Assembly (NCBI GenBank): GCA_947501605.1
Contig: CANMWZ010000006.1
Span: 22,897-86,896, forward strand
Source: Planctomycetota bacterium
GTDB lineage: Bacteria; Planctomycetota; UBA1135; UBA2386
Direction: 5' to 3'
DNA length: 64,000 bases
A program made the translations under genes and the position numbers. Of the stretch, positions 14,497 through 37,165 are shown piece after piece (within the stretch, counting starts at the first letter, position 1; each line of letters starts with the position of its first letter). The notes under the pieces were generated by a model that worked only from the letters and a program-made list of their open reading frames with translations, did not search any database and was not told the origin of the DNA.

Positions 14497-15894
14497 TCAG
14501 CGCTGCCGCGCGGCGCCTTCGACCTGCTCGAGGTACTTCTGCCACGCTTCCTTCGGCTGGAGTTCGACGGCACGGCGCAGCAACGGCAGCGCCTCCTGGT
14601 ACTTGCCTTGCCGCACCAGCAATTGGCCGTGGCCGAGCTTTGCCTGTGCCTCGAAGGCGGCCACTGACGCAGCGCGCTCGAACTCGAAGATCGCTTGCTC
14701 GATGTTGCCCTTGCGATCGTGGAAGCGCGCCAGCAGCACGAGCGAGCCACCATCGAGTGGATCGAGCTCGACGAGCTTCTGCAGGACGGCCGCCTCTTCG
14801 TCCCCGGCCCCCATAGCGACGGCGATGCCCGCGCGCAGATTCAAGACGGCCTTGCGATCCTCGACCCCCAAGTCCTTTCGCTTCTGCTCGATGCCATCGA
14901 CGAGCGCGCGGGCCTCGGTGAGCGCTCCTGCCGCGTTCATGAACTTGGCCGCACGGAGTGCCCGATCGACCTTGGTCTTGTCGCTGGCCACCAACGCACC
15001 GAGGTACGCAGTGACCGCGAGATCGAACAACTGCTGGCTGGCGTAGAGATCGCCGAGGTTGTTGAGAACCGCCGGACTCGCCGCCGACAGCCGCGAGACC
15101 ATCTCGAACGACTCAATCGCTCGCATCGGCTCACCAAGCATCGCCTGGGCTTCGCCTTCGAAGCGCCAGAGATCGGCGCGTTCAGGGTGCTGATCGACGA
15201 GCGACCGAAACAACGATGAGGCGTCAGCAAACCGGCGCTGGCGGAACAGGCTCTCGGCAAGGCCCATCTTCCAATCAACGACTTCGGGCGCGAGTAGGCT
15301 GGCCATCCGAAACGCAGACTCAGCGGCGATGTCGTCGCCGACCCGCGCGTGGCAGACGCCTACGAGGCCATAGACGACGGCGTCGCCGCCACCGAGTTCG
15401 ATCACGCGTGCGAAGGCACGGCGCGCCTTCTGGAACTCGCCGCTGCGATAGTAGATCTGGCCCAGGTTTGCCCAGGCGCGGCGGAACTTGGGCCACTTGG
15501 CAACTGCGGTTTCGTAGGCCGCACCAGCCTCCGGCGCTCGCTCCCGTTGGTAGTGGATGTTGCCGATTGTGAAGTCGAACACCGCCGACGACTCCGGTTT
15601 CGCCAGGTCCTTCAGCGACACCAGAGCTTCGTCGAGTTTCTCGGCCGCGATCAACTGCATCGCTTGCGTGAGACCCTCGCGTTCCGCCGGTTCGACCTTG
15701 GGCTCGATGTCGCGGTCAGCGACGTAACTCTCTGCCAAGCGGCGCAAGAAGTCGGGCCCCTGGAGAACTGCGCGCTCGGCATCCGTGAGTTCGCGCGGAC
15801 GCGGCGAGAGCTCGACGGCTGGCACCTCCTGCGCGAACAGCGGTGCGGAGAACACAGCGACCAACAAGGTGCAGGCGAGTCGAAGACGGTTCAT
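14497..15894 (-). CDS. TPR-repeat protein, TtpD-like terminal gene of a TonB2-type cluster
   Basis: Signal peptide 'MNRLRLACTLLVAVFSAPLFAQE' and multiple TPR-like repeats. Starts 2 nt after the tonB stop. Position matches TtpD in Vibrio TonB2 loci. Confidence 0.75.
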   Translation of the reverse strand: MNRLRLACTLLVAVFSAPLFAQEVPAVELSPRPRELTDAERAVLQGPDFLRRLAESYVADRDIEPKVEPAEREGLTQAMQLIAAEKLDEALVSLKDLAKPESSAVFDFTIGNIHYQRERAPEAGAAYETAVAKWPKFRRAWANLGQIYYRSGEFQKARRAFARVIELGGGDAVVYGLVGVCHARVGDDIAAESAFRMASLLAPEVVDWKMGLAESLFRQRRFADASSLFRSLVDQHPERADLWRFEGEAQAMLGEPMRAIESFEMVSRLSAASPAVLNNLGDLYASQQLFDLAVTAYLGALVASDKTKVDRALRAAKFMNAAGALTEARALVDGIEQKRKDLGVEDRKAVLNLRAGIAVAMGAGDEEAAVLQKLVELDPLDGGSLVLLARFHDRKGNIEQAIFEFERAASVAAFEAQAKLGHGQLLVRQGKYQEALPLLRRAVELQPKEAWQKYLEQVEGAARQR

Positions 15895-15896
15895 GG

Positions 15897-16571
15897 CTAC
15901 TTGTCCGGGAACGTGATGGGCTGCCGCATGCGGAAGCGGACGGGTTGGCCCTTCCGCTTGCCGGGTTCGAACTTCCACTTCTTGATCGCATCGAGCGCGG
16001 CTCGATCGAAGACAGGATCCGGCGACTGCTGCACCACGGGGTTCTGTACGCGACCGTCCTCGTCGACGACGAAGACGACGTACACTGTGCCCGGCGCCTT
16101 GCGGCGGATCTGCGGCGTCATCTGTGGGTTGTGCGGGTAGACGACGCGCGGCTGCTGGTCGAGGTCAGCGACACTGAAGAGACCGGTGCTGTCGTCCGCA
16201 CTGTCGCCACCGCCGCGGTTGAGTTTGATGGCGAAGTCCGCCGTGCTCCAGCCGCCACCAACGCCGGGGTTGAGCGCCAACTCAAGCTGCGACAGGTCGA
16301 GCGGCGGCGCATCGGGCTGCATCTCCGGCGGTTTTTCGTCAGCCTCTGGCGGCTTGTCCTCTTCGACTTCGGGCGGCGGCGGCGGCGGTGGTGGTGGCAG
16401 CGCGACCGTGTCGACGCTGCGCAGCAGGGTGTCCGCTGCCGGCGTTGACGCAATCGCTTCGATCAGCGGCAACACCAGGAAGCATGCGATCGTCAAGGCC
16501 GTGGCACCTAGCGTCGTGCCCACGGCTCGGCGCATTCGTCCAGCCAATCTGCGTCGTTCTCGTTGCCCCAC
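15897..16571 (-). CDS. tonB: Energy transducer TonB
   Basis: N-terminal TM and a Pro-rich spacer 'PPPPPPPPPEVEEDKPPEADEKPPEMQPDAPP'. C-terminal TonB_C 'GTVYVVFVVDEDGRVQNPVVQQSPDPVFDRAALDAIKKWKFEPGKRKGQPV'. Confidence 0.85.
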   Translation of the reverse strand: MGQRERRRLAGRMRRAVGTTLGATALTIACFLVLPLIEAIASTPAADTLLRSVDTVALPPPPPPPPPEVEEDKPPEADEKPPEMQPDAPPLDLSQLELALNPGVGGGWSTADFAIKLNRGGGDSADDSTGLFSVADLDQQPRVVYPHNPQMTPQIRRKAPGTVYVVFVVDEDGRVQNPVVQQSPDPVFDRAALDAIKKWKFEPGKRKGQPVRFRMRQPITFPDK

Positions 16572-16582
16572 GTTGGATTTCC

Positions 16583-17005
16583 TCAGTTGCCGCTGGGCTT
16601 GCTGGTGGCAAGACTGACCTTCTGCGCACCGCCGAGCTTGGCCTCGTCGATCACGCGAACGAGCAGGCCGGTCGGCGCAGTCTCGTCTGCCTGGACGATG
16701 ACGGGGATGTCGCTCTCCTTTTGCAGCAGGCGGCGAACAACAGCGCGGACCGAGCCGATGCCGATGTCGCGCTTGTCGTAGACAACCTCGCCCTTTGCCG
16801 TGAGCGCAATCATGATGCTGGTCTTCTCCAACTGAACGGCAGACGCAGCTTGTGGCTTGTCGACCTCCACGCCGGTCTCCTCCACAAAGGTGGTGGTGAC
16901 GATGAAGAAGATCAGCAGGATGAAGACACAGTCGATCAGTGGCGACAGGTCGATGCCTGCGCCGTCGCCGTCGTCTTCGTTCATCGATTCGCGGAATCGT
17001 CCCAT
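16583..17005 (-). CDS. exbD: Biopolymer transport protein ExbD/TolR
   Basis: 140 aa with 'IDLSPLIDCVFILLIFFIVTTTF', typical of ExbD. Confidence 0.9.
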   Translation of the reverse strand: MGRFRESMNEDDGDGAGIDLSPLIDCVFILLIFFIVTTTFVEETGVEVDKPQAASAVQLEKTSIMIALTAKGEVVYDKRDIGIGSVRAVVRRLLQKESDIPVIVQADETAPTGLLVRVIDEAKLGGAQKVSLATSKPSGN

Positions 17006-17038
17006 CGTCGTTCTCCAGTCAGATGTGCAGCGCGCAGG

Positions 17039-17755
17039 TCAGCGTGAGCCGCCTTGCGCACGAAGTTGTTGGGCGATCTCCGAGGCCACCTGCCTCTTGG
17101 CGCGTGCTGTAGCAACGCGCTTCAGTTGCATGGCCAAGCGACGATGCACAGTCTGCGTGCACACGGTCTCGAGATGCGCGAGGAACGCCTTGTACCGCTG
17201 CAACCTGCGGCTCGTCGCGTACTGGTAGAAGACACCCGGCAAGGCGATGACGAGTCCCGTTTCGGTCGTGATCAGGGCCTCGGAGATGCCACTCGCGATC
17301 TTCCCCATGGTCTGGTCGCCGCCAGAACCCGAAGCCAGGGCGTCAAACGTCGTCAGCATGCCTGTCACGGTGCCGAGCAACCCAAACAGGGGCGCCGCAC
17401 TCACCGCGACCTTCATCACCTTGAGATCGCGCTCGAACGGGGCCGTCTCTTCGACACGCACTTGGTCGAAGGCCTTGACGATTGCCTGGTCGCTCGGCAG
17501 CGACTGTCCCACGACGCGATCGAGCAATCGACCGATCGGGCCGTGACGATCGCGTGGATGGTCGATCCAGCTGCGCCAGGTCGATTCCGGAACACTGGTG
17601 AACCCCTTGCCCAACAGTGCAAGAAAGACATTGGTCCCCATGCCGAACACCGCCAGCGCGGTGACCGCGATCGGCCACATCGCCCACCCACCGGCAATCC
17701 AGATGACCGTGGCCTGGTCGATCAGTCGCAGCAGGGTTTCGTGTAGGAAGTCCAT
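17039..17755 (-). CDS. exbB: MotA/TolQ/ExbB proton-channel protein (ExbB)
   Basis: 238 aa with 'APLFGLLGTVTGMLTTFDAL...IASGISEALITTETGLVIALPGVFYQY'. Confidence 0.9.
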   Translation of the reverse strand: MDFLHETLLRLIDQATVIWIAGGWAMWPIAVTALAVFGMGTNVFLALLGKGFTSVPESTWRSWIDHPRDRHGPIGRLLDRVVGQSLPSDQAIVKAFDQVRVEETAPFERDLKVMKVAVSAAPLFGLLGTVTGMLTTFDALASGSGGDQTMGKIASGISEALITTETGLVIALPGVFYQYATSRRLQRYKAFLAHLETVCTQTVHRRLAMQLKRVATARAKRQVASEIAQQLRAQGGSR

Positions 17756-17787
17756 GGTCCTGGTGAGTGGAGATTGTCGCCAGGAGG

Positions 17788-19356
17788 TCAGCGCGCGCGG
17801 GCCGAAGCGGCCCCGCCGTCATCGTCGAGCACCGGCCCGAGGATCTCGCCGAGCACTTCGCGGATCTGCATTCGGATCTGCGCCGGTTGCGTCGCGCCGC
17901 CGTCGAGGTCCGCCCCCGTCGAAGCACTGCCGCCACCAACGCCCGTTACGTTGGTGAACTGCACCGCAAGGGTCTCCATCTCGCTGACCAATCCACGCGC
18001 CTTGCGCGAGAGGAACGAATGCAAGAGCAACGACGGGATCGCAACGATCAACCCGTACTCCGTCGTGATGAGCGCTTCGGAGATACCGCCGGACAGCGAC
18101 GCGACGTCGCCACTGCCGTAGATCGTGATCTGCTTGAACGTCTCGATGATGCCGGTGACCGTTCCGAGCAGACCGAGCAACGGCGCCGATGAGGCCGAGA
18201 TGGCCAAGAATGGCAGCATGCTCTGGATGCGCAGCTTGGCCGTGAGGATGCGTTCGAACATGACCTCTTCGAGCAACTCACGCGACTCCTGCAGGCTGCC
18301 AACGCCGGCCCCGAGCATCTCGCCGATCGGCCCCTTCAGCTCGCTGGTCAGTGACTTCGCGCGGTCATAGTCTTTCTCGCGCAAGGACTCGAACAGTGAC
18401 TTCAGCTGCCGCCGAGTAGGCCGACGGATCAGACTGAGCGAGAGCCACTTCCACAAAGTGACGAGCAGCGCCGCAATCGCGAGCGCCAGGATGGGCCACA
18501 TGACCGCCCCGCCCTTCAGGAAGTGCTCCACCAAAGTCTCCTCGGTGGCAGCGACCTTGTGGGCCGATCCGAGCGTCGGATCGACAGGTAGTGCGCCCTT
18601 GCCGCTGGCGACAAAGGCCGCAGCTTCGGCGGCTTGCTCCGGCTGCGAGAACGAGGTCACCGAAGGCTCGAGCGACCCGAGCTTCGCATCGACGGTTCCC
18701 ACCGCGACTCCGTCCTTGCCGCGGAACACCGCGATGGGCCCCACGAGCGCGAAGGTCCCGTTTGTGAGCACACCATCGGCGCCGACTGCACGACCATCGA
18801 AGCGATTGCCGCCGAGGCAATCCTGCAACCGCTGGATCGAGCGCGTGACCACGTTCGCCTGCACGACAAACAGGTCCTTCGGCATCATCGTCCGGTCATC
18901 AGCAGCGAGCTTGGCCGCTGCGATGACGTCGTCGTAGAGCTGGACTTCGGCGATGTGCAGCGACGACTCGAAGTTGCGAACGAACTCGCCAAACACGTTG
19001 CCGAGGTAGTTCTGTTCGTCCTGTTTGCGCTTCTGCTCGGCCGTCAGATTGCCGAGGGCCTGCGAACCAGCATCGAGCTGACGGGTCCGGTCAGCGGCCG
19101 ACTGCCGCAGTTGCGAGAGCTCTGCTTCGAGTTCCCGAAGCGTCCGTCCGAGCGGAACTTTCTCTTCGGCAACCTGCTGCATGACCCGGTCGAGCTCGAC
19201 CAGACTCTCGGCCAGCTGCTTTTGCAGGTCCTGACTGGAGCGCTCGAGCACAGCCTGCAGGTCCTGCTGCTTGGCAACCGACTGTGGCTGCTGGGCCACG
19301 ACGGTCGAGGACAGCGCGAGCAACACCGCGGTCGCGATCAATGAGAAGTTGGTCAT
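17788..19356 (-). CDS. Long MotA/TolQ/ExbB-family protein, TtpC-like
   Basis: Internal Met gives the signal peptide 'MTNFSLIATAVLLALSSTVVAQQ'. About 300 aa of coiled-coil/periplasmic extension, then the channel core 'APLLGLLGTVTGIIETFKQI...GGISEALITTEYGLIVAIPSLLLHSF'. Confidence 0.85.
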   Translation of the reverse strand: MTNFSLIATAVLLALSSTVVAQQPQSVAKQQDLQAVLERSSQDLQKQLAESLVELDRVMQQVAEEKVPLGRTLRELEAELSQLRQSAADRTRQLDAGSQALGNLTAEQKRKQDEQNYLGNVFGEFVRNFESSLHIAEVQLYDDVIAAAKLAADDRTMMPKDLFVVQANVVTRSIQRLQDCLGGNRFDGRAVGADGVLTNGTFALVGPIAVFRGKDGVAVGTVDAKLGSLEPSVTSFSQPEQAAEAAAFVASGKGALPVDPTLGSAHKVAATEETLVEHFLKGGAVMWPILALAIAALLVTLWKWLSLSLIRRPTRRQLKSLFESLREKDYDRAKSLTSELKGPIGEMLGAGVGSLQESRELLEEVMFERILTAKLRIQSMLPFLAISASSAPLLGLLGTVTGIIETFKQITIYGSGDVASLSGGISEALITTEYGLIVAIPSLLLHSFLSRKARGLVSEMETLAVQFTNVTGVGGGSASTGADLDGGATQPAQIRMQIREVLGEILGPVLDDDGGAASARAR

Positions 19357-19373
19357 GGTCGTTCCTGATCGCC

Positions 19374-20222
19374 TCACAGAATCTCGATGGGCAGCGCAAC
19401 GAAGCTCGCCATCTGCTTGCTCTGATAGACCTTGATCGCGGCCTGCACTGCGACAGCCGCGTCGTTGCGCGGAGTCCACTTCCAACCCTCTGGCGTAGCG
19501 ACACCGACTCCGGCCGCATCGCCCTTGATCGTCACGTAGAAGGCCTGGCCGAGCCCAAGATAGAGGCATGCAACCTCGGCAGTCGAACCGTCGGGGAGCG
19601 AGCGGATCTCACTGGTCACCGTGACCTCTCGATTCCACTTGTTCACGAGGTTCAAGACGCTCAGCACATTGCCGAAGCGGACGCCGAGCGAGAGCTTCTT
19701 CTTGTTCGAGTCGTCACTCTGTGCGGTCGCAAACTGCTGAGTCAGAGGCGCAATCTTCTCACGGATGGGTTCAGGCAATCGAAGCAGCAGCGCCCGCGTC
19801 TGCTCCTCCATCGCAATGATGGCGACGTCCAGCGCCTGCTGCACGACATCGAGCTTCGAGCTCTCTTCGATCAGCGCAGCCTTCTGCCGGTCCGCCGCAG
19901 CGATGCTCGCCTCGGTTTCGACGATGCGCTGCTTTTGCGCGTCGATCGAACGGCGAACGACATCGATACGCTCCAGCACGGCCTCCTTCTCGACTCGCCA
20001 ATCGGTGCGTGCCTTGCTGATCTGCCGGCGCGCCTCGACCCATTTCTCCAACATCGCCCGCGTAGTCTCAGCGCCGGCCGTCACCGGCGCCGGCGCGGTG
20101 CCTGCTGCCGGATCTTGTTGCTGCGCGGATGCGTAACTCGTCGTCGCAACGCTCGCGAACATGGCCACTGCGAGCGCGCGAGAAAGCGCGAACGTGCGGG
20201 GTCGCTTCGTCTCTGGTTTCAT
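19374..20222 (-). CDS. DUF3450-family periplasmic coiled-coil protein, TtpB-like
   Basis: Signal peptide 'ALAVAMFASVATTSYASAQ' and a long coiled coil. C-terminus 'LYLGLGQAFYVT..G..AGVG...GWKW' resembles DUF3450. Sits immediately upstream of the TtpC-like gene, as in TonB2 systems. Confidence 0.7.
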   Translation of the reverse strand: MKPETKRPRTFALSRALAVAMFASVATTSYASAQQQDPAAGTAPAPVTAGAETTRAMLEKWVEARRQISKARTDWRVEKEAVLERIDVVRRSIDAQKQRIVETEASIAAADRQKAALIEESSKLDVVQQALDVAIIAMEEQTRALLLRLPEPIREKIAPLTQQFATAQSDDSNKKKLSLGVRFGNVLSVLNLVNKWNREVTVTSEIRSLPDGSTAEVACLYLGLGQAFYVTIKGDAAGVGVATPEGWKWTPRNDAAVAVQAAIKVYQSKQMASFVALPIEIL

Positions 20223-20266
20223 GTCGTTCGGTAGGTTGTTGGTCGTGGAGTCGAGGCGAGGCCCGG

Positions 20267-23209
20267 TCAGAAGGTCACGCGGCCGCCGATGCCAATCGAG
20301 TAGTCGACGCCGCGCGTGTAGGTGATCTTGGTGACATCGTCGCCGATGTAGGGCGAGCGGTAGACCTGCTCGATGGCCGGATTGGTCAGGTTCTTGGCCT
20401 GGAACTGGAGGTCGATGTGGTCCGACAGGCGCTGCGACAGGCTGAAATTCAAAGAGTCGAAAGCAACCTGGTAGACGTTGGGCACGTAGCGGTCGTTCGC
20501 TTGGCCAGCGCCCGAGATGAGGGTGTCCCCAGTGAGCGTGTAAAACAGGCCAATGCGCGTGCCGAGCCGGTCACTCTCCCAGGTGAGAAATGTGTTGAAG
20601 AGCGACTCGGGCGCATTCGTCATGTCGCGATGCGTCATTGGCGCACGGATCGCCGGCAGATTGAAACCGTCGATCTCCTCCTGGGTCAGCGTCACGTCGG
20701 ACTGGATCCACGTCGCGTTGGCGCCGACTCCGAAGCCGTCGAGTTCCTTGGCAAACTGCGCGAGTTGCTGACGCACCTCCAACTCAATGCCGTCGATCTT
20801 GCCCTCTGGGTAATTGACGGCCGACGTGTAGTCAAAAACAGAGGCGATGCGTTGCACGTACTCGATCGGGTTCTCGATGTCCTTGTGGAACCACGATGCA
20901 GAAAGGAGACCGCCCTCGTTCGGCGTCCAGTCAGCGCGCAAGTCGTAGTTCTTGAGCGCGCTCATCCCCAGCTCCGGGTTGCCGACGAACACTGGGCCGC
21001 CGAGATACTCCTGTTGGAGGATCGGGGTCAGCTCCTTGAACGTCTGCCGCGCAATCGTCTCGCTGTAGGCCGCGCGCAGAGTCACGTCAGGCACAACCTC
21101 ATAGATCACCGCGAGCGCTGGCAGGGCATCTTCCTGACGAAAGGCGACGTCCGCCTCTCCCGGCCCGAGCGGCGCCGGCGCCGATGAGCCGGGCGGAAAC
21201 CACACGACATCCGATTCGGCGTCGTTGACGATGTCGATGCTCGTGTTCTCGAAGCGAACGCCCGCAACGACATTGAGTCCTGCGACGATCGGCAGATCCA
21301 CCATCGAGTACCAGGCATCGATCTTCTGGTCGCCGACGTAATCGACGTCGATGAGGCCGGCGGTGATCGGATGGTTCTCGAAAGGGAAGCTGGCGCTCCA
21401 AAACTGCTCCCACGGGGCGTTGAAGGTCGAGTTGTCGCTGAAGTTGCTGAACGTGTCCTGGTCGTAGGTTCGCTTGACCGTGTCCTGGAAGTAGCCGAAC
21501 TTCAGATACCCCTCGAGATCCGACCACTGGTCGAAGGGGAGCTTGAGGTTCGTCGCGTACTGGTTGCTGTCTTCTTCGATCTCTTTGTAGATGCGCTGCA
21601 GATTGCCAACGGTGAAGTTCGCCGCCGGCTTGAACGGCTGGAAGGTACCACCATTGGTCGAGTCCCAGCGCGAGCCGAACACGCGCTTGTCGGGTTGCCG
21701 CTTGTCGGCCGCACTCTTGGACACGGTCCAGTCGAGCACCGGCGACTTGAGCGCGCCGCCAGGTTCGATGGGCAGCGTGTGGCGCCCGTTCAACTGCAGC
21801 GTGTCGGTGGATCGCTCTGAGTACTGCAGCGTCTCGAGTCGCAGGTAGGGGGCCGCGTTGCTCTCGGCGTGCCCAGGCGTCGACGTGTTGTTGGGGTCGT
21901 AGCCCGGAAAGTAGTAGGCCTTACCACGCGTGTCCTCGGCCAAGGTCGCCGAGTCCTCCGACGTCAGCGTGTTGAGCCAAGCAAAGGTGACCGAGTGGTT
22001 GTCGGTCTCGAGGCCAACCGTCGCCAACGATCCGAGCTGGACCTGCTGCGTGCTGCGGGTGATGTCGTAAAGGCGAGTTTGAAAGTCCTGGCTCTGGACA
22101 CCACTGCCGGTGACCTGTGGGGTCATCGGGTCCCCGGGAACGTCGACCCACCACGACTCGTCGCGGCCGTTGTTGTAGTGCGTGGTCTTGTGTTCGTAGA
22201 ACACGCTGAGGAATCCGCCGAGACGGACGCCGTCGGCGATCTCCGTCTTGCCGCCAACCGCACTCGAGAACTTGTAGTCGACTGGCGCCGCCTCGCGACG
22301 CACGCCGACAGCGCCGTCCCAGTTCTGCCCGAGAAGATCGATCTGCGGATCGCGATCGCCGCCGTCCCTACCCGAGAAGTGGACGCCACCACCTTCATAG
22401 CTGAGGAAGTTGCTCCGACCCGTGGCTTGCGTGTTGTGGCTCGATTGGATGCGCCACTGAAAGAACAGGGGCTCGGTCGGCACGCCCTTCAAGCGCACGT
22501 CGACGGCGCCACCCGACGCATCGCCCTGCTGGTCCGGCGTGAACGTCTTCGTAACCTGGACACTCTCGATGACGGCGGCAGGGAACTGGTCGAGTTCGAC
22601 TGCGCGCTTGTCCTCATCGGCCGACGGCAGGCGAACGCCGTTGAGCTGGGAGCTGACGTAGCGATCCGGGAGACCGCGAATCACCGCCGACTTGCCGTTC
22701 TGCAGCGACGCTCCAGCGACCAGACGAAGCGCGTCCGAAGCGTTGCTGGCGCCGGCGCGACCAATGATGTCGGCGCTGATCGAGTCCATCAGCGACGGGC
22801 TCTCGAACCGCAACTGCAGTTGGGACGCTTCGGACTCGCCGCCAAGCGCGAGGATGTCCTGGACGACGTATTCTTCGAGGTCGGTGAAGTCCCCCGCCAG
22901 TGCGACATCGATCTCGACCAAGGCGCCGGGGGCAACCACCACGTTCGGGCGCACCTGACGGACGTAGCCGTCCTTGGACACGATCAGGGTGTAGGTGCCT
23001 GGCGGCAGCTCACGCAGCAGGTAGTTACCTTGATCCGCGGTCTTTGCCGTCTCTGGCCGACCGATGATGGTCACGGTTGCCTCGATAACCGGACCACCGA
23101 AATCCTTGTCGGTGATGACGCCGCGGATGGAGCCAGCCTGCTGCGCGTGAAGAGCGCTGCTGAGCGGCCCTAGGGCTCCGAGCCACAGAAGTAGAGTCCG
23201 GTTCTTCAC
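20267..23209 (-). CDS. TonB-dependent receptor with N-terminal CarboxypepD_reg-like domain
   Basis: 980 aa, GTG start. Signal peptide, then 'GSIRGVITDKDFGGPVIEATVTIIG...GNYLLRELPPGTYTLIVSKDGY'. Plug 'VIRGLPDRYVSSQLNGVRLPSAD'; C-terminal 'IGIGGRVTF'. Confidence 0.9.
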   Translation of the reverse strand: MKNRTLLLWLGALGPLSSALHAQQAGSIRGVITDKDFGGPVIEATVTIIGRPETAKTADQGNYLLRELPPGTYTLIVSKDGYVRQVRPNVVVAPGALVEIDVALAGDFTDLEEYVVQDILALGGESEASQLQLRFESPSLMDSISADIIGRAGASNASDALRLVAGASLQNGKSAVIRGLPDRYVSSQLNGVRLPSADEDKRAVELDQFPAAVIESVQVTKTFTPDQQGDASGGAVDVRLKGVPTEPLFFQWRIQSSHNTQATGRSNFLSYEGGGVHFSGRDGGDRDPQIDLLGQNWDGAVGVRREAAPVDYKFSSAVGGKTEIADGVRLGGFLSVFYEHKTTHYNNGRDESWWVDVPGDPMTPQVTGSGVQSQDFQTRLYDITRSTQQVQLGSLATVGLETDNHSVTFAWLNTLTSEDSATLAEDTRGKAYYFPGYDPNNTSTPGHAESNAAPYLRLETLQYSERSTDTLQLNGRHTLPIEPGGALKSPVLDWTVSKSAADKRQPDKRVFGSRWDSTNGGTFQPFKPAANFTVGNLQRIYKEIEEDSNQYATNLKLPFDQWSDLEGYLKFGYFQDTVKRTYDQDTFSNFSDNSTFNAPWEQFWSASFPFENHPITAGLIDVDYVGDQKIDAWYSMVDLPIVAGLNVVAGVRFENTSIDIVNDAESDVVWFPPGSSAPAPLGPGEADVAFRQEDALPALAVIYEVVPDVTLRAAYSETIARQTFKELTPILQQEYLGGPVFVGNPELGMSALKNYDLRADWTPNEGGLLSASWFHKDIENPIEYVQRIASVFDYTSAVNYPEGKIDGIELEVRQQLAQFAKELDGFGVGANATWIQSDVTLTQEEIDGFNLPAIRAPMTHRDMTNAPESLFNTFLTWESDRLGTRIGLFYTLTGDTLISGAGQANDRYVPNVYQVAFDSLNFSLSQRLSDHIDLQFQAKNLTNPAIEQVYRSPYIGDDVTKITYTRGVDYSIGIGGRVTF

Positions 23210-23385
23210 GGGAGGGCGACAACTCTAGGATGTTCCGCAAAGGCACCGTGAAGACGCCGTGGTTCTCACGTGAACGCCAGACTAGGCTTCCAACAATCGC
23301 GCGCGAAGTGCTTCTTGCAGAACGGTGTCGGGGCGGAAGAACGGCAGGGAGGGAAGGCCGAGTCACCCTGGGCACTGGGCAGCAC

Positions 23386-24627: not shown

Positions 24628-24913
24628 GAGACTCCTACGATTCGGATCGAGTGGGAAACGCGACAACCCGGGGATTCCTAGAAGCTGTTTCACGATTGGC
24701 GTGCGAGCGAGGCCGAGCAACGAAGGCAGAGGGCAAGGAGCGGACTCGTAGCGGAATCCGTAGCTCCCGCGGAGAGTCTGCGACGCTGCCATCGGCCGAG
24801 GTGCCGACCGCAGCCGCTAGCGCTTGGTGAAACCACTTCTACGGTGCTCGGCTCGCAACCGCGGAGCTACGCGCTCGGAGCCGCAGGCGATAGTGGCGGA
24901 CATCACCGCAAAC

Positions 24914-26979: not shown

Positions 26980-27092
26980 GTTGGCGGACGGTGCGAGGCT
27001 GTCCTCGCACCATGGACACCCTAGGGATCTGTGTTTGTTTGCAGTGAAGGCTGCAAGGAGCCTTCGCGAGTGTCCGTACGCTCGGACGAAGC

Positions 27093-31300: not shown

Positions 31301-34300
31301 CCGCGTCGAAGGCCTTCGGCAGGCGAAGATCGCGCGGATCGAGGGCCTTCAGCGGCATCGCCACGCTGCGGTAGTCGAAGTCGTCGCCGTCGACGGCGAT
31401 CACGTGCAGCAGCTGGCCCGCGCCGAGGTCCTTGCGCGGGATGCGCAGCGTGCCGTTCGCATCGGGGCGAAGGTTGGCGAGCAGCGACGTGGCGCCGTCG
31501 AGGAAGTCGATCGTGGCGTAAGCGTTCGGGTCCGAACCCGTTGCGCGCATGGAGTTGGCCGTCTCGGCTGGCGGCGCCTCGGCCCTGCCGCCGCGTCGGC
31601 GGCCATAGCCACCGCCGGCACCACCCCCGAACCGGCCGGTGTCCGAGGCTCGATCGATCGCCCACGGATTCAGCAGCAGGCTCGGCCGCTGCAGCATGTT
31701 GCCGGGGAACTTGGTCGCGTAGCGACGCTCGAACACGTAGCGAAGTTCGTCCCCCACGCGGCGCTCGGCGGCGTAGTCCGAGAAGCGCGGTTCGAGCAGC
31801 ACTCGAGACGCGCCGCCATAGACGGGCGGCAACGCCAGAGCGAACGCATCGAAGGCCGGCAAGTAGCGCGTCGCGAACGCGTGCACGCGGGCGGAGGCAC
31901 CGGCGTTGCCGAGCCGGACCGACACGGTGTCCGCATCGGCGTCGAGTCGGAGGATCGCGAGCGGCGTCTGGCCGCGCAGCAACAACGCGCGCGTCGCACC
32001 GAGAACGAAGCGACCTTGCTCGGTACCGTTCGTCACGGCAACGTCGATCTCGACGTCGAAGCGCGGCAATCGCAGCACGTAGTCACCGGCCGGCACAGCG
32101 CGCAGTTCGAGCCAACCCTCGGTGAGAGCCAGGAGCGCGGAGGCATCGCGCACCGGTCGATCGTCACGGCGCTCGACCAATGTCGCGATCGAGGCGTCGA
32201 GTTGCGTTCCATTCTCTGGATACGCGACGCGAAGTGTTGCGCCGGCGATTCCCTGCAGGCTCTTCGGCCATGCTCGCCGTTCGACCAGGAACCACGAGGA
32301 TCCGGCGACCGACGACGAGCCGAGCAGGCGGACCTCGTCGATGCCCTCGAGCGCGCCGAGTGCGACCTTGCCTGCGGCATCCGATTGCAGAACAACCTGC
32401 ACTTGGTCGCGGAAGTCGCAGTGGCGCAGCGAGAGTTCGACTGTCCGCGTCGCCAGCGGCTCGCCGGTGCGCCCGCGCACTTCGACGAACCAACCGTCCT
32501 GTTCCCGACCGAGGATCGAGGCCGCAACTTCCGCGGTCGCCTCGATGCCGTTCACGACGAACGTGCCGCCGTCTTGCTGCACGTCGACCGTCTGCCCCGT
32601 GCTCGCCTTCTGGTAGCGGGCGCGCATGGCGACCGACAAGCTCACGAGCCCGCGCGGAACCTCGAAGTCGTGCACGTACTCGCCGTTCGAGTCGAAAGCC
32701 GCGACCGCGATCGTCTGCATCGACTGGGCGCCGTCGCGCAAGCGGGCCGTGATCACGAACTCCGGCTCCTGCAGCAGCGCGAGCGAGACCGGCACACCGC
32801 CGACTTCGAACCTCGGGCGCAGCAGCAATCGACTGGGTTCCCCGCCGCGCAGGGACTCGCGATCGACGAACGCCGCGAGTCGCAGCTCGGCCGACTCGAC
32901 CGCGTGGGCGAAGCGATGCAGCGTCGCGACGGCACCGCGCCGCACCACGATCGTCCGCTGAGCAGGCTCGGGCGAGAACGGAACGGCGAGTTCGCCGCGG
33001 TCGTCGGCGACGATCTCGCGGCCGGCACAGAACGCGACGGCATCGCGCACGGGTTGCCCGTTCTCGTCGAACACCGAGAACACGTGGCCCGCGGCGCCGA
33101 TGCGCGACAGCACATCGAGGCGGCCCTTCTGCACCACCGCGCGGCTCGACATGCCGTTGCCGACGAACTCGACGACGTAGGTGCCGGGCTGGTTGAGCGA
33201 GTCGGGTTGGAACTGCCGCCGCACGCGCCGCAACGGTGGCTCGGAGTACTGCACGACCTGCTCTTCGTTGGCGACGACGCCGTCGAGGTCGATCGAGGCA
33301 TCGACGTCTTTGCCGACCGCCTTCAAGTAGGCATACGCGTCGATCCGGTAGACCTTGACCAGCAAGGTCGGCACGTTCTTGACGTCGAGCTCGATCGTGA
33401 CCTTCGCATCCGCCGCGAAGTGCTGCTGCGCCCGCTTTGCGAACGAGAGTTCGACGCGTTGCACCAGCTGCTCGTAGTACGACGGATCCGCAAGCATCGA
33501 GTACCAGCGCTCCATGTCACCTTGACCGAGCAGGATCTTGGTCTCGGCGAACACGCGACGCAGCCAATCCTCGCGCACATGCTCGGTCCACGGAGCAATC
33601 GTGTCCGCAGTCGCGAAGATCTGTTCGAAGCACGCACGCACGAGCTCTTCGTCGCTGCCGACCGCGTCGAGACCGGTGCTGCTGCGGAAACCGTCGTCGA
33701 CGATATCCTGCCCGCGACTCTTGCGAATCCACTCGGGATTGGCGTAGCCGGCACGCCGTGGCAATCGCAGATACGAACCGAGGCGGTCGGTGTCGACCTT
33801 TCCAAGTTCGAGATCGTGCCGCAACCGGTGGAACAGCACATGGCTCTTGAGGCTGTTGTGCACGGGCGACAACCGCTCCACGAAGCCAAGGAGCGCGTCG
33901 AGGTAGGCTTCGCGCGCGCGCACGTCGACCTGCCAAGCGACATCGGCGTTCGGCCGCAGTCGACGCACGTACTCGTCGACATATCGACGGTCATCGCGCA
34001 AGTTGGGGACCTGCTGCAGCACCTCGTCGAGCTGCGACTGCAACAAGAACTCGTGCACCCGCAGAGAGCCGAAGCCGCCGCTGTCGCGCAACCGCAGTTC
34101 GCGCGCAACGAGCAGCGCGAGACCTGGCACGTCGGAACGCTGAAGACGATTCAAGAGCTCGCGCAGCAGGTTGTCCGGCACCTTCGTCGCCAACAATGCA
34201 GCGAGACCGCGATCCGTCAGACCGTCGAGCGAGTTTGAGTGCAGCGCGAGCGCGCGCTGCAGGAGTTGCGCCGCCGCGATCGAGCGATTGTCGAACTGAG

Positions 34301-34709
34301 TCGGCAACTCAGGCTGCTGACCCGGGACCTGCCGCTGCTGGTCAAAGGACAGTCCCAATCGCTGCTGCAGCCATGCATAGGTGCCCTTCTCATCGCGTTC
34401 GTAGGAGAGCAGTGCTTGGCGCACTTCGATCTCCTCGACCCGCGACGTACGCCCGTGCCTTTCAACCCATGCAGCGAGGAGCACCGGAACAGCATCGAGC
34501 GCCCCTTCGTGCTGCTTCTGCAAGCACTGATAGTAGTAAGCGTCCTCCGTCCCCGGGATCAGCTGCGCGAGCGCCGCTGCGCGATCGGGCGCAAGCGCGA
34601 ACGTCTCGGCGAATCCTCCCGGCGGCGTCTGCGCCAACAGCGCCGAGGACATGGCCAGGAGGGTCAGCGGAAACACAACACACGACAGCCGCAGGAGTGG
34701 ATTGCGCAT
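28365..34709 (-). CDS. Giant (2114 aa) exported protein, function unknown
   Basis: Uninterrupted 6.3-kb ORF. Signal peptide 'MRNPLLRLSCVVFPLTLLAMSSALLAQ', helical N-terminal third, repeated beta-rich modules, and a Gly/Pro/Ala plus acidic linker near nt 30440-30700. C-terminus 'VYVKCYARGADGSVRFHKDGYTDLRGRFDYVSVS'. Confidence 0.8.
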   Translation of the reverse strand: MRNPLLRLSCVVFPLTLLAMSSALLAQTPPGGFAETFALAPDRAAALAQLIPGTEDAYYYQCLQKQHEGALDAVPVLLAAWVERHGRTSRVEEIEVRQALLSYERDEKGTYAWLQQRLGLSFDQQRQVPGQQPELPTQFDNRSIAAAQLLQRALALHSNSLDGLTDRGLAALLATKVPDNLLRELLNRLQRSDVPGLALLVARELRLRDSGGFGSLRVHEFLLQSQLDEVLQQVPNLRDDRRYVDEYVRRLRPNADVAWQVDVRAREAYLDALLGFVERLSPVHNSLKSHVLFHRLRHDLELGKVDTDRLGSYLRLPRRAGYANPEWIRKSRGQDIVDDGFRSSTGLDAVGSDEELVRACFEQIFATADTIAPWTEHVREDWLRRVFAETKILLGQGDMERWYSMLADPSYYEQLVQRVELSFAKRAQQHFAADAKVTIELDVKNVPTLLVKVYRIDAYAYLKAVGKDVDASIDLDGVVANEEQVVQYSEPPLRRVRRQFQPDSLNQPGTYVVEFVGNGMSSRAVVQKGRLDVLSRIGAAGHVFSVFDENGQPVRDAVAFCAGREIVADDRGELAVPFSPEPAQRTIVVRRGAVATLHRFAHAVESAELRLAAFVDRESLRGGEPSRLLLRPRFEVGGVPVSLALLQEPEFVITARLRDGAQSMQTIAVAAFDSNGEYVHDFEVPRGLVSLSVAMRARYQKASTGQTVDVQQDGGTFVVNGIEATAEVAASILGREQDGWFVEVRGRTGEPLATRTVELSLRHCDFRDQVQVVLQSDAAGKVALGALEGIDEVRLLGSSSVAGSSWFLVERRAWPKSLQGIAGATLRVAYPENGTQLDASIATLVERRDDRPVRDASALLALTEGWLELRAVPAGDYVLRLPRFDVEIDVAVTNGTEQGRFVLGATRALLLRGQTPLAILRLDADADTVSVRLGNAGASARVHAFATRYLPAFDAFALALPPVYGGASRVLLEPRFSDYAAERRVGDELRYVFERRYATKFPGNMLQRPSLLLNPWAIDRASDTGRFGGGAGGGYGRRRGGRAEAPPAETANSMRATGSDPNAYATIDFLDGATSLLANLRPDANGTLRIPRKDLGAGQLLHVIAVDGDDFDYRSVAMPLKALDPRDLRLPKAFDAAQHLAEQQRIEFVAAGSETRVPDVATTKLRPFTSLQEVHRLLGTLVQGPDLADFAFVTRWPSLTADERLQLYRTHACHELHLFLYFKDRAFFDSVLKPYLANKAHREFLDDWMLGEDVASYLEPARFATLNLVERILLLQRLPGQREALVRHARELGELEPIDLEGKKLVFRAALRTADLDAGAEGDAKTLLGLDVVDRLERKLSAAEPSAGGPASAGPAGPATGRRAADPGAPAPKPESAEKAKQDLSASVEQGQAGGLLTELTDKDAELAKEDDEQDRERRKVQRSFFRDLDPTRIFAESYYWKMQRTDETADRIRANSFWRDFAASQGTPFVSPNVAEARGSFTEAMFALAVLDLPFEGKQPSSVRDGAAATLRTEGPLLLARSEILPVVQKDGIDPVLIRQACFRLDDRYSYDGNVRRQKSVTSEFTAGVVYGSQIVLTNPTEAPRTLSLLIQIPAGALPLQGGFATHSVPLQLDAFATTTFEFSFYFPLPGDFAHYPAQVSADGVFVGAAEAAVRHVVATPTVVDSASWDHVSQMAEADAVLEYLRTHNLRRVDLSRIAWRLRDRVFFGKVVELLRSQLQYDDTVWSFGVRHGDLPVAREYLARRADLGQSIGYVLRSPLLTVEPLVERAYEHLEFDPLVHARAHRIGAWQGIQNRDVTQQWQQCLAILCRRPQLAAADWAEVTYYHLVQGRTEDALAAFARIDRESLTTALQYDYLAAYLAFFRADVAAARSIASVHKDHPVDRWRTLFRSVLQQADEIDGAAVVATDEELRDAQQTQLAATEPQLDVVVEGGVIAIRHRNLEVCEVRYHRLDVEFAFSNSPFQQQGLAAVGWVEPMRKDAVELGKGAQQTTVPLPAEFAQGNVVIEVRGGGLVRRAQSLASTMVVQAIGSYGQVEVRSQKGAPLAKVYVKCYARGADGSVRFHKDGYTDLRGRFDYVSVSESGSSGAQRYALLVLSETDGAVLRELDAPNR

Positions 34710-35188
34710 CGGTCAGAATCGTCAAGCCAAGTACGAAAACAAGGCGGCGGTGCGCGCCATCTGCGACTCGCACCACCGCAACGGAACATCGAGGGTAGCG
34801 GGCAACGGCATCCACAGCACCGTGTTCCCGGCACGCAGGCAAACAGCGGCAAGACGCCGCTGCGTTCCGGGTCGACATGGCAACAGCTTTCGACTGGGCT
34901 TCTGGCCAAGCATCGTTCGTGTTGCTTGGCAAAGTGCCCGACGCTCGAGTTCCGCGAGGGTCGTTGTCGGCTTGCTCCAGACTCGACGGCGCACGCAGCT
35001 ACCCGGGACGGTCGACTGCAGGGCCTTTGCCACGCTGCCCCGCCACTTCTAGCGCAACGCCCCGTGGCGGTGATGAACGCGGCGAGACGGCGGCACAGCC
35101 TCCGTCACGACCGAAGACGATCCGCCGGGAAGACCGTGCGGGCGCGACACCGACCGACGACAGCAACGCGGAAGCGCCGGCGCGCTAC

Positions 35189-37165
35189 TCAGCGGGGAGT
35201 CGGCACCGCGCCAGCGTCGCGCGGCGTCTGCAGCGGGGCGAAGAAGCCCCAGATCGCGACCGTCGCGTCCCACGCGACCGGTTCATCGGCGCCGAGGTAG
35301 TTGCCGCGCGTGCCGCCCGGCCAAGCGTGGCCACCGCCGCCGATCGTGACGACGCAAACGGGCAGGGTACGTTCATCGGCCTGCCAGGTCTCGATGCGCA
35401 CGCCGCCATCGACTGTGGTCTCGGGTTCGCCGGTGAGCCCGTTGCGCGTGCGATAGTACTTGGCTGCGTCCGCAACCGCGGCGTCAACGCGACGGCCAGC
35501 GCGGCCCATGCTGCGCTCGGGCTTGCCGCCGTCGTAGCGAACGTGAAGATCCGCAGTGCCGTGCACGATCATCACGGCGACTGGGGAGGTTGCATCGGTA
35601 TCGGTGAAGTTCATCGCACCGGACACCGGCGCGATGCCAGCGAACAGGTCTGCAGCCTCGCGCGCCAAGCGATGACACATCATGCCGCCGTTGCTCATGC
35701 CCGTTGCAAACACTCGATCTGGATCGACGGCGATCCGCTGCTTCAGGTCAGCGAGAACTGCTCGCACGAACTCGGTGTCGTCGACGTTCTTGTCTCCGGC
35801 GTAGACAGGGATGCCACCGCTGTTCCAGGTCAAGAGCTTGTTGCGCAACAGACCCGTTCCATCGGGATAGACGGCAACGAAACCGCGGCGATCAGCGAGC
35901 TTGGAGAAGCCAGTCGACTCCTCCACTTGCGCGCTGTTGCCACCGCCACCGTGGAACACCATTACGACTGGGAGCTTCGCCGCCGACGACCCGCCGGGCG
36001 GGACGTGCAGGCGATAACTGCGAGTTCGACCGCCGCACTCGAGTCGGACCAGTTCGTCGGTGCCGCTGATGGCGGGCGACTTGACGAACGCGCGCGCCGC
36101 TGCCTGCACTGCACCGATGCGCGGCAGGACGCGCGCGACACGATCTTGGATGGCGAGCACACCCCACAAGCCTTGATCCCGATCTACCCACGGCAAGAAC
36201 CCGAACGCGCCTGGATCACTGCCTCGCACCACCCCTGCTTGCGGCTCCTGAAGCCAAGTGGCGAGACCGTAGGCGAGATCGCCTTCAAAACCCGGGAAAC
36301 GAACCAGTGTTCGAGCAGTCTGCGACCGGAACATGCGATCCAGCGATTCCGGCTTCAGGACACGCACGCCGCGAAGTTCGCCACCATTGCCGAGCATCGC
36401 ACAGAATCGCTCATAGTCGCGCAGCGACGACACTGCTCCCCCTGCGATCCAAGGAACAGTCGCTGCGCCAGCATCGCTGCCGACCGGCGACAGCCGACCA
36501 AACGCGGTGTTCATCATGCCCAGGCGGTCGGCCACGCGATCGCGAAACAAGGTGTGCCAGTTGGTCTTGGTGGCGCGCACCGCGACGCACGCGGCCACTT
36601 GGAACCCCACACCGCTGTAGACGAAGTCGATGCCGGGCTCATACTGCAGCGGCTCCTCGGCAAGCTCGCGAGCCACGCCGTCCATGTCGAGATCGCGATC
36701 GAGTGCGGTTCGCGATTGCGCGGCGAAGCCCGCGGTGCACGACAGACACTGACTCAGCGTCAGGTACTTCTTGTCCGGGCGATCGAACTCTTTCAGGTAG
36801 CGCGACACCGGCAGCTCGATATCGAGCAACCCATCATCGTGCAGCGAGAGGATGACCGCGGTCGCGAGCCACTTGCTGGCCGAAGCAATCGGCAGTGTCT
36901 GGTCAGCGGAGAAGTCACCGACGGTGCCAAGGTGGAGCAACCTGTCCTTGAGACCGACCGCCAGCCCCGCACCCTCGACGCCGATCGGCCGGGTCAGGTG
37001 GGCGAGCGCTTCCGTCAGTTCCTTCGCTGACGGAGCGGTGCGTTCGGGGGGCGTCGCCAACTCTTGCGCCGAGGGGTCCTGGCCGAGGACCTGCGTCGCC
37101 GCACCGAGAAGCAGCACCAGGTTGAGGGAGATCCGCAGTGGGAAGCCGGCAAGCCGCATGTTCAT
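35189..37165 (-). CDS. Exported fusion: beta-lactamase-fold serine hydrolase (N) + PHB-depolymerase-family esterase (LpqC-like, C)
   Basis: Signal peptide 'MNMRLAGFPLRISLNLVLLLGAATQVLGQ'. N-domain has SxxK 'IASASKWLA' and 'VYSGVGF'. C-domain has 'RSYRLHVPPG..LPVVMVFHGGGGN...AVYPDG...WNSGG' and a nucleophile elbow 'GMSNGGMM'. Confidence 0.8.
   Translation of the reverse strand: MNMRLAGFPLRISLNLVLLLGAATQVLGQDPSAQELATPPERTAPSAKELTEALAHLTRPIGVEGAGLAVGLKDRLLHLGTVGDFSADQTLPIASASKWLATAVILSLHDDGLLDIELPVSRYLKEFDRPDKKYLTLSQCLSCTAGFAAQSRTALDRDLDMDGVARELAEEPLQYEPGIDFVYSGVGFQVAACVAVRATKTNWHTLFRDRVADRLGMMNTAFGRLSPVGSDAGAATVPWIAGGAVSSLRDYERFCAMLGNGGELRGVRVLKPESLDRMFRSQTARTLVRFPGFEGDLAYGLATWLQEPQAGVVRGSDPGAFGFLPWVDRDQGLWGVLAIQDRVARVLPRIGAVQAAARAFVKSPAISGTDELVRLECGGRTRSYRLHVPPGGSSAAKLPVVMVFHGGGGNSAQVEESTGFSKLADRRGFVAVYPDGTGLLRNKLLTWNSGGIPVYAGDKNVDDTEFVRAVLADLKQRIAVDPDRVFATGMSNGGMMCHRLAREAADLFAGIAPVSGAMNFTDTDATSPVAVMIVHGTADLHVRYDGGKPERSMGRAGRRVDAAVADAAKYYRTRNGLTGEPETTVDGGVRIETWQADERTLPVCVVTIGGGGHAWPGGTRGNYLGADEPVAWDATVAIWGFFAPLQTPRDAGAVPTPR

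Follow-up and report, generated by a model that had tools for sequence, protein, structure and literature searches.

Two kinds of envelope system described in other bacteria bear on the locus presented here. The first is a pair made of a TonB-dependent receptor and an exported protein with a pectin-lyase fold. In Caulobacter crescentus, cells starved of phosphate produce the exported member, ElpS, which raises the activity of extracellular phosphatases, and its gene belongs to an elpS (cc0170)-cc0171-type II secretion gene layout that is conserved in Sphingomonas (Le Blastier et al. 2010, PMC2996285); TonB-dependent receptors belong to the PhoB regulon of this bacterium, as does the type II secretion system (T2SS) that releases ElpS (PMC11208175). 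The receptor-lid pair BT4055/BT4056 of Bacteroides is conserved in 621 genera, and BT4056, a member of the pectin-lyase superfamily, has been tied to ElpS and to Fjoh_0546 (Price 2023, bioRxiv 10.1101/2023.03.17.533168). The Flavobacterium genes FI, FII and FIII are among those most strongly induced by depletion of inorganic phosphate (Pi), FI lying next to a TonB-dependent transporter and encoding the most abundant exoprotein, i.e. 18.7% (Lidbury et al. 2021, PMC8115612). The second kind is the Ttp-type TonB operon, known from the Vibrio TonB2 and TonB3 systems, which share the genes TtpB-TtpC-ExbB-ExbD-TonB-TtpD; TonB2 is regulated by Fur and iron, and the seven-gene TonB3 operon, which starts with a receptor gene, is not iron-regulated and has an unsolved role (PMC6957404). 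We analysed a stretch of 64,000 nucleotides (nt) from a Planctomycetota bacterium (contig CANMWZ010000006.1 of assembly GCA_947501605.1, positions 22,897 to 86,896; hereafter the window, with a G+C content of 65%), in which genes of both kinds lie side by side on the minus strand.

The conserved unit in this window consists of nine genes (14497-26940) encoding a beta-helix protein, a helical protein, a receptor and a six-gene motor. We put at roughly 60% the probability that this cassette is a phosphorus-scavenging import system of the Pho regulon in the window organism. The ElpS/BT4056 pair and the Ttp-type TonB operon are known kinds; a literature search retrieved no description of an ElpS-type pair and a Ttp motor as one conserved cassette, in Planctomycetota or Alteromonadales, nor of the additional partner resembling tetratricopeptide repeat (TPR) proteins, of a non-lipoprotein form of the beta-helix protein or of the candidate Pho box reported below. 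The same search found nothing on beta-helix/TonB systems of Planctomycetes or on TonB2 together with PhoB. Hundreds of genera have ElpS-type pairs, which in Caulobacter and Flavobacterium rank with the products that phosphate starvation induces most strongly; their cargo has been an open question since 2010. Planctomycetota carry the pair as a compact and highly conserved cassette with an extra partner and its own motor, which makes this question easier to attack.

A conserved nine-gene cassette

The first gene of the cassette encodes the exported beta-helix protein (24976-26940, 654 amino acids (aa), PF28492 Beta_helix_4). It is followed by the gene of the helical protein (23386-24627, 413 aa), an exported all-alpha TPR-like solenoid, and by that of the TonB-dependent receptor (20267-23209, 980 aa), in which CarboxypepD_reg and Plug domains (Pfam) precede a barrel. 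The motor then comprises a TtpB-like DUF3450 protein (19374-20222, 282 aa, PF11932, E = 1e-21), a TtpC-like long MotA/ExbB protein with a periplasmic coiled-coil N-terminal extension (17788-19356, 522 aa, PF01618 at residues 343-461), ExbB (17039-17755, 238 aa, PF01618, E = 2e-22), ExbD (16583-17005, 140 aa, PF02472, E = 2e-29), TonB, with a proline-rich linker and a TonB_C domain (15897-16535, 212 aa, PF03544, E = 2e-17), and, as the last gene, a TtpD-like exported TPR protein matching many TPR families of Pfam (14497-15894, 465 aa). All nine genes are on the minus strand.

Linkage was assessed in 83 loci found via the beta-helix protein, 80 of which were contributed by a metagenome scan (loci are designated below by L numbers). 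The helical gene lies directly downstream of the beta-helix gene in 57 of the 59 loci that could be tested, i.e. those with at least 1.5 kb of downstream sequence, and in one of the two exceptions (L086) it is also adjacent, the beta-helix protein being merely longer. This helical protein is a Planctomycetota-specific and near-constant downstream partner of the beta-helix protein. Twelve loci have 9 kb or more of sequence on each side, and every one of them contains a receptor plus seven or more of the eight remaining genes. Neighbourhood look-ups gave the same nine-gene order in five loci (L085, L086 (Sedimentisphaera, Phycisphaerae), L087, L168 and L169), one of which belongs to a metagenome-assembled genome (MAG) labelled Omnitrophica; the order reads Beta_helix_4, an unannotated protein of about 390-430 aa, a CarboxypepD_reg receptor and then the six motor genes.

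The blocks of the cassette are not always arranged in this way. Besides beta-helical-receptor-motor, the orders receptor-motor-beta-helical, motor-beta-helical-receptor and beta-helical-motor-receptor were found, as were divergent arrangements. Since the blocks remain near each other despite at least four permuted orders, selection appears to act on proximity, as opposed to synteny being inherited, and proximity that survives rearrangement is a stronger sign of functional coupling than frozen synteny. Clustering of the flanking open reading frames (ORFs) revealed no other family in more than five of the 83 loci, hence no additional conserved member.

We conclude with high confidence that nine genes, an ElpS-type receptor cassette including its own Ttp-type motor, make up the functional unit, and that two genes farther upstream, those of a giant protein and a hydrolase, are bystanders. 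A preliminary description of this region had coupled the receptor to a complete Ttp/TonB2-type motor, which domains, gene order and linkage across many genomes bear out. It had also joined five upstream exported proteins to this assembly: the beta-helix and helical proteins do recur with the receptor and motor, but the giant, the hydrolase and a lipoprotein do not. Judged by recurrent linkage to receptors, the yardstick that the description had set itself, three of its five upstream genes fail.

The beta-helix protein, its partners and the motor

The beta-helix protein carries a Sec signal peptide, and its N-terminus (MLMNSTIKAACAVVALAAVAQAQ) is devoid of a canonical lipobox. About 2000 relatives, at about 60% identity and across classes, all have the PF28492 domain. 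An AlphaFold2 (AF2) model (mean predicted local distance difference test (pLDDT) 83, predicted template modelling score (pTM) 0.89) shows a right-handed beta-helix of stacked short strands at residues 20-515 and an immunoglobulin (Ig)-like beta-sandwich at residues 520-654. When this model was compared with the Protein Data Bank (PDB) using Foldseek, only the C-terminal sandwich was matched, weakly, and the helix part had no solved relative; a profile search against PDB sequences gave no match, and no lyase, hydrolase or other beta-helix family of Pfam was matched at E <= 0.01.

More distant homologues were found by tblastn among annotated plasmids and chromids (23 records of Proteobacteria and Bacteroidota, E from 2e-13 to 7e-28), the matches spanning residues of about 24-340 at 28-34% identity. 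In Sphingomonas and Indioceanicola the gene order is homologue-receptor-gspN-gspD-gspE-gspF, and in Parabacteroides the receptor gene comes before the homologue; these layouts are those of elpS-cc0171-T2SS and of BT4055/BT4056, respectively. Pairwise BLASTP of the window protein with the receptor-adjacent proteins of Sphingomonas and Parabacteroides gave 31-32% identity (E = 4e-27 and 4e-31, the latter, at 31%, for the Parabacteroides counterpart), with common motifs running through the helix to a terminal YxGAF...W.AGWT. The comparisons place the window protein in the ElpS/BT4056/Flavobacterium FI-FII family of receptor partners with a predicted pectin-lyase fold; orthology to ElpS and BT4056 proper is deduced from synteny and from the statements of the papers, rather than from direct alignment.

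As in Caulobacter, an exported protein of this family is encoded beside its own receptor, a likeness that we infer via the Sphingomonas and Indioceanicola loci; ElpS is a phosphate-starvation product whose T2SS release falls within the PhoB regulon (PMC2996285, PMC11208175), and the window has a Pho-box-like motif. ElpS is however a lipoprotein of about 50 kDa released by a neighbouring T2SS, whereas the signal peptide of the window protein is a plain one and no T2SS genes lie nearby. The window protein is further distinguished from ElpS by the C-terminal Ig-like domain, the TPR-like partner and the dedicated TonB motor. The BT4055/BT4056 pair and FI/FII/FIII of Flavobacterium johnsoniae likewise combine a pectin-lyase-fold protein with a CarboxypepD_reg-type TonB-dependent transporter, but the Bacteroidota members are lipoproteins at the cell surface, their genes follow that of the receptor, and neither a dedicated motor nor a TPR-like partner goes with them; the Bacteroidota PUSIII cluster is under extracytoplasmic function (ECF) sigma/FecR control, as opposed to the direct PhoB control proposed for the window.

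On a Hymenobacter plasmid (L178, 621-13892), an ElpS-like gene mis-annotated as 'cell shape-determining protein MreB' and its receptor gene adjoin genes for a DNA/RNA non-specific endonuclease, a protein sorted by the type IX secretion system and a porin, a neighbourhood that would fit phosphorus scavenging from nucleic acids.

In the AF2 model of the helical protein (pLDDT 90), a disordered linker of some 40 residues precedes a TPR-like solenoid of 19 helices. The invariant positions of this protein are mostly basic, as in the motifs PHxKNRGRGQ, DWRRG and NPNSRPRADD, and several homologues have a lipobox, the window copy having none. Only generic TPR matches were obtained with Pfam, with Pfam scans of each family member and with a sequence profile, and only generic TPR or designed repeats in the fold search. 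Neither a specific family nor SusD was among these matches, and an assignment of the protein as a SusD was accordingly rejected.

The receptor consists of an N-terminal CarboxypepD_reg domain, a TonB-box-like EEYVVQD segment, the plug and the barrel. Its alignment with the Parabacteroides receptor covers the entire length, and all 14 plasmid records that it matches at E <= 1e-20 are receptors adjacent to a beta-helix homologue. The best NCBIfam match is TIGR01782 (249 bits, below the cutoff of 310), a Xanthomonas/Caulobacter receptor subfamily rich in carbohydrate transporters. A secretion role like that of Oar was considered and has no supporting evidence.

The motor genes follow the order ttpB-ttpC-exbB-exbD-tonB-ttpD in six contiguous genes with gaps of 2-47 nt, as expected of a Ttp-type system. 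Genes, order and domains are those of Vibrio TonB2 and TonB3, of which TonB3 also starts with a receptor gene (by description, PMC6957404). TonB2 is controlled by Fur and iron, unlike the window, in which no Fur box was found, and descriptions of the Vibrio operons mention no accessory genes of ElpS-like or TPR-like type. Compared with the window, the motor genes of other loci (L095, L096, L101, L113, L116, L123, L127, L129, L138 and L145-L147) form two divergence classes, with identities of about 70% versus about 30% for ExbD and about 50% versus about 33% for TtpC, which suggests that two Ttp-type motor lineages may serve one beta/helical/receptor set.

The link between beta-helix homologue and motor extends beyond Planctomycetota. 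On plasmid pBGP9 of Alteromonas macleodii the order is homologue-receptor-DUF3450-TtpC-ExbB-ExbD-TonB-TPR, i.e. that of the window minus the helical gene, and the three Pseudoalteromonas chromids inspected all read DUF3450-TtpC-ExbB-ExbD-TonB-hypothetical-homologue-receptor. These clusters resemble the window in that homologue, receptor and the full set of six motor genes form an uninterrupted block; they differ by the missing helical gene, by longer beta-helix proteins (540-1366 aa; L170 has the homologous domain twice in tandem) and by receptors without CarboxypepD_reg, the alignments beginning at about residue 83-131. They are annotated, and no description of them was found in the literature.

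The preliminary description had likened the region to a polysaccharide utilization locus (PUL). The likeness to SusC/SusD loci is a loose one: a CarboxypepD_reg-like receptor, an all-alpha TPR-like exported protein (a lipoprotein in some helical homologues) and a further binding protein, exported or at the surface, are found together. It goes no further, as there is no match to TIGR04056 or to the SusD family, no carbohydrate-active enzyme (CAZyme) in the cassette or recurring in its flanks, and a helical gene that is upstream of the receptor gene, not downstream.

Promoter motif and a probable link to phosphate

Aligned regions upstream of the beta-helix gene share a motif made of CTTCAC(G/A), four bases, a repeat ending in CAC(G/A), 8-9 bases and CTAGnnT. 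A position weight matrix (PWM) was built from twelve sites in other loci, the window not being included. Above 12 bits, it has a single match on both strands of the 64-kb window, and this match is located 111 nt upstream of the beta-helix start (27018-27054, minus strand, GCCTTCACTGCAAACAAACACAGATCCCTAGGGT). The pattern CTTCAY-N15-21-YTAGNNT occurs three times in the window versus 0.04 expected, i.e. upstream of the beta-helix gene, upstream of the receptor gene (23222-23256, minus strand, GTCTTCACGGTGCCTTTGCGGAACATCCTAGAGT, 44 nt from the start) and as an opposite-strand match overlapping through the palindromic CTAG; the pattern was written after the sites had been seen, so that independence holds for the PWM result. 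The beta-helix and receptor genes each having a copy of one promoter-like motif, the several transcription units of the preliminary description find support.

In 24 other loci the PWM matches 70-190 nt upstream of the beta-helix gene, and in seven loci plus L005 upstream of the receptor gene, at 45-54 nt (L005, L088, L100 and L103) or 94-242 nt (L107, L119, L121 and L125). As a background, about 22 matches occur in 1.58 Mb of loci containing the giant gene. Neither the PWM nor the pattern matched before the giant or hydrolase genes of the window.

Both window promoters display a 7-4-7-8-hexamer architecture, which might represent a PhoB-type direct-repeat box shortly before a -10 element. The motif is also present, in the 7-4-7 arrangement of E. 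coli Pho boxes, in the divergent pstS/phoU promoter of L092 (CTTCACG-cagc-ATTCACG and GTTCACA-atca-CTTCACG), where a PstS-family gene (299 bits, cutoff 207) followed by a permease gene (pstC), and phoU (198 bits, cutoff 130), adjoin the beta-helix cassette. In L117, phoU is directly upstream of the beta-helix gene, and in L147 and L168 this position is held by response regulators whose best NCBIfam match is PhoB (264 and 250 bits). In Alteromonas macleodii pBGP9, phoB-phoR-pstS stand immediately upstream of the cassette, and E. coli-like Pho-box repeats (TTGTAACAAAAATGTCAC) precede the homologue, ten bases before TACTCT. A transcriptome paper on TonB-dependent transporters of Alteromonas does not mention phosphate.

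From these elements we propose the following mechanism. Two co-regulated transcription units (14497-27054) would be expressed upon phosphate limitation, when a PhoB-type regulator would bind the 11-bp-spaced direct repeats before both units. Unit 1 would supply the exported beta-helix and TPR-like proteins, and unit 2 the cognate receptor with its six-gene Ttp-type motor, in the layout of the Vibrio TonB3 operon. The beta-helix protein would capture a phosphorus-containing ligand or present it at the receptor, and the TPR-like protein, rich in invariant Arg, Lys and His, could act as a second binding or adaptor subunit. The dedicated motor would use the proton-motive force to open the receptor plug, and Pst would then carry phosphate across the inner membrane. 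The substrate is more likely a phosphorus source than a structural carbon polymer because the ElpS/BT4056 family is tied to phosphate starvation.

Several observations weigh against this proposal. The Pho-box assignment draws on a single pstS/phoU promoter (L092) and on gene adjacency, the latter seen in four planctomycete loci out of 85 and on one plasmid of Alteromonas. Neither a pst nor a pho gene is present in the window, and the second repeat is degenerate at both of its sites. For the regulators of L147 and L168, the PhoB scores fall short of the equivalog cutoff, which is set at 296 bits. Flank clustering revealed no phosphatase, nuclease or phosphodiesterase among the conserved cassette members. 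Finally, the window beta-helix protein lacks the lipobox of ElpS and BT4056, which bears on its surface exposure.

Alternatively, the motif would not be a Pho box but the target of another regulator or of a specialised sigma factor, the cassette answering a different signal. Many different members of the OmpR family recognise direct repeats spaced by 11 bp, which counts in favour of such a regulator, as do the solitary pstS/phoU promoter and the ars-like genes beside the regulator of L147. We nevertheless consider it unlikely, given the independent adjacency to phoU, pstS and PhoB-like regulators, phoBR-pstS directly upstream in Alteromonas, and the experimentally established phosphate-starvation induction of homologues in two other phyla (PMC2996285, PMC8115612).

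It is likewise unlikely that the beta-helix protein is an enzyme resembling pectate lyase or polygalacturonase that acts on an acidic polysaccharide, whose oligomers the receptor would import for carbon. The pectin-lyase fold of the family (AF2 model; Price 2023), the CarboxypepD_reg N-terminal domain that the receptor shares with SusC and the Xanthomonas/Caulobacter subfamily as its best NCBIfam match would all suit glycan uptake, and plant cell-wall material, as a source of organic phosphorus, is the target that Lidbury et al. suggest, speculatively, for FI and FII (PMC8115612). Against it stand the lack of a lyase or hydrolase Pfam match at the threshold used and of a PDB match to the helix part, together with the finding that conserved neighbours of the cassette include no CAZyme, sugar transporter or catabolic gene; moreover, about 60% identity of the beta-helix protein across classes fits one universal ligand better than variable glycans.

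Iron or siderophore uptake as in Vibrio TonB2, with the beta-helix protein as a hemophore- or siderophore-binding partner, appears improbable. The motor does have the six-gene make-up of the Fur-regulated TonB2 operon (PMC6957404), and iron chelates are the classic cargo of TonB-dependent receptors, but the 64-kb window contains no Fur-box-like site within three mismatches, and no siderophore, heme or ABC iron genes were seen in it or recurring in the flanks. In addition, Lidbury et al. report tight repression, when N or Fe is limiting, of the uncharacterised Flavobacterium loci inducible by low Pi, those of the homologous FI-FIII lipoproteins among them (PMC8115612), and the layout with a leading receptor gene matches TonB3, which is not iron-regulated (PMC6957404).

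The phosphorus-scavenging reading can be widened, tentatively, into one in which Ttp-type motors, including Vibrio TonB3, energise ElpS-type, PhoB-controlled receptors across phyla (Planctomycetota and Alteromonadales), and in which an ElpS-like beta-helix/TPR-like pair captures polyanionic phosphorus compounds in Planctomycetota. The imported compound might then be, for instance, polyphosphate, phytate or nucleic-acid fragments; this wider reading is possible but doubtful. If it is true, it would provide a function for ElpS/BT4056 pairs (more than 600 genera) and for TonB3-type operons, for which a function is in any case suggested here. For the planctomycete group of the window, the analysis also points to a candidate Pho box, and it offers a likely role for nine genes annotated as 'hypothetical' or generically in many Planctomycetota genomes; the Alteromonas pair and motor behind phoBR-pstS make tractable marine gammaproteobacteria available as test hosts.

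Repeats of a similar kind were encountered beside the cassette. Three 11-nt-spaced repeats (CTTCACG / CTGAACG / CTGAACA) were found on the minus strand of L152 (about 1945), L157 (about 263) and L167 (about 9754). In L152 and L167 they are 31 nt upstream of outer-membrane-protein-like ORFs of 360 aa, present as tandem pairs, which may encode Pho-regulated porins; in L157 no downstream ORF was called. Islands of the L152/L157/L167 type also contain a CX5R phosphatase-like ORF (e.g. L155, 1407-2570). Arsenic-resistance-type genes, i.e. an ACR3/SBF transporter, a low-molecular-weight phosphatase of ArsC type and an ArsR-type helix-turn-helix protein, lie beside the PhoB-like regulator upstream of the cassette in L147 (2894-4602) and L168 (6667-6984), and would fit a link between arsenate and phosphate.

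Upstream neighbours and other features of the window

Three further minus-strand genes lie upstream of the cassette: those of the lipoprotein (27093-28217, 374 aa, lipobox LLAAC), of the exported giant protein (28365-34709, 2114 aa) and of the exported hydrolase (35189-37165, 658 aa), which combines Beta-lactamase and Esterase_PHB domains (Pfam). Together with the cassette they make up the twelve consecutive ORFs (14497-37165) of the preliminary description, all of which were recovered with the coordinates, lengths and domains given there (ORF calls, Pfam). Twelve same-strand genes in a row are not in themselves beyond chance; the meaningful statistical signal is cross-genome conservation, and it covers only nine of the twelve.

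The giant family has a near-constant length of about 2060-2170 aa. Scanning one genome per species retrieved it in at least 592 species loci, from Planctomycetota, Verrucomicrobiota, Kiritimatiellia, Lentisphaerota, Hydrogenedentota, Riflebacteria, Ca. Uabimicrobium (two copies) and a few Myxococcota. Pfam, NCBIfam, segment-wise Pfam and PDB-sequence profile searches gave nothing significant, the best being a faint match to bMG3 (E = 0.07). Its C-terminus bears the family-invariant motif F[HY]KDGYTDLRGRFDY, and it represents a large, conserved orphan family without fixed gene context.

Synteny of the giant was examined by tblastn of the other eleven window proteins against 80 retained loci (L005-L084) with up to 10 kb of flank each. 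Beta-helix, helical, receptor and TtpB/C genes adjoin it only in L005, its closest relative (57% identity); the other 79 show no link to a receptor. Its neighbours are unrelated to the cassette in Pla163 (patatin, an ECF sigma pair, GH38) and in a Phycisphaerae MAG (PEP-CTERM proteins), and in genome JADKAF it lies at about 3.40 Mb, some 1.9 Mb from the cassette at about 5.32 Mb. Clustering of the giant flanks found no ORF family in more than nine of the 80 loci, hence no conserved neighbour, and the recurrent families, judging by their sequences, look like large paralogous planctomycete families, e.g. sulfatases and Ser/Thr kinases. On the basis of the species scan with tblastn synteny, three neighbourhood look-ups and the flank clustering, the giant was rejected as a part of the system; it is found near the cassette only in the clade of the window, giant and lipoprotein preceding the beta-helix gene only in L088-L090, whose beta-helix proteins are at least 71% identical to that of the window.

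The C-terminal half of the hydrolase is a type-1 short-chain polyhydroxyalkanoate depolymerase catalytic domain (NF050058, 160.5 bits, cutoff 150; NCBIfam). No other locus showed a link of the hydrolase with the giant or with the cassette, and even in L005 and L088 it is absent beside the giant. An iterative hidden Markov model search of all fetched loci recovered only four homologues of the lipoprotein, between giant and beta-helix genes in L088-L090 and between phoU and the beta-helix gene in L092. A weak Pho-box-like motif precedes it in L088-L090, the window copy being degenerate. It could be a rare, lineage-restricted accessory outside the core, an assignment that we regard as uncertain; the giant and the hydrolase are unrelated neighbours, and so, probably, is the lipoprotein.

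It is thus very improbable that the twelve genes form one PUL-like locus in which the giant, the lipoprotein and the esterase would serve to capture and process a substrate, polymeric or ester-linked, for import by the receptor: the shared strand, the giant-lipoprotein-beta order of L088-L090 (giant-beta in L005) and the weak motif before the lipoprotein are in its favour, but the dispersal of giant and cassette in other genomes, the hydrolase that stays apart from the giant and the lack of the promoter motif before either of them count against it. Three unrelated genes had been pulled into the operon model because strand co-orientation alone was used, and the correction of this over-extended operon serves as a caution on method.

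The gaps upstream of the receptor are exactly the 176, 348, 152, 147 and 479 nt of the preliminary description, whereas in the distal block, for which it gave 2-44 nt, they amount to 2, 47, 33, 32, 17 and 44 nt with the start choices of the present analysis. Stable hairpins do occur in several intergenic gaps (minimum free energy (MFE) folding), as it had noted, but canonical terminator-like sites are not enriched in the window (10 versus 10.8 expected); sigma-70 promoters and intrinsic terminators are not above chance there either, and Rfam at gathering thresholds gave no match in the window, leaving riboswitch control without support. Directly after the beta-helix stop codon, MFE folding predicts two stable hairpins (24910-24975, minus strand), one of which has an 18-bp perfect stem. 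They have no T-tract and are therefore no canonical terminator; they might act as an attenuator limiting read-through into the helical gene and so set the ratio of beta-helix to helical protein.

Downstream of the cassette (1-10400 and 10560-12282), genes for a NarL-type response regulator and a histidine kinase are followed by a polysaccharide biosynthesis and export cluster (DegT aminotransferase, Poly_export, Polysacc_synt_2, GT4, WbqC, Bac_transf and an epimerase); all of these are unrelated to the cassette. Elsewhere in the window, a minus-strand ORF (49353-50408) has a strong match to Pus10_C (189.6 bits). Pus10 is a tRNA pseudouridine synthase of archaeal/eukaryotic type and is unusual in bacteria.

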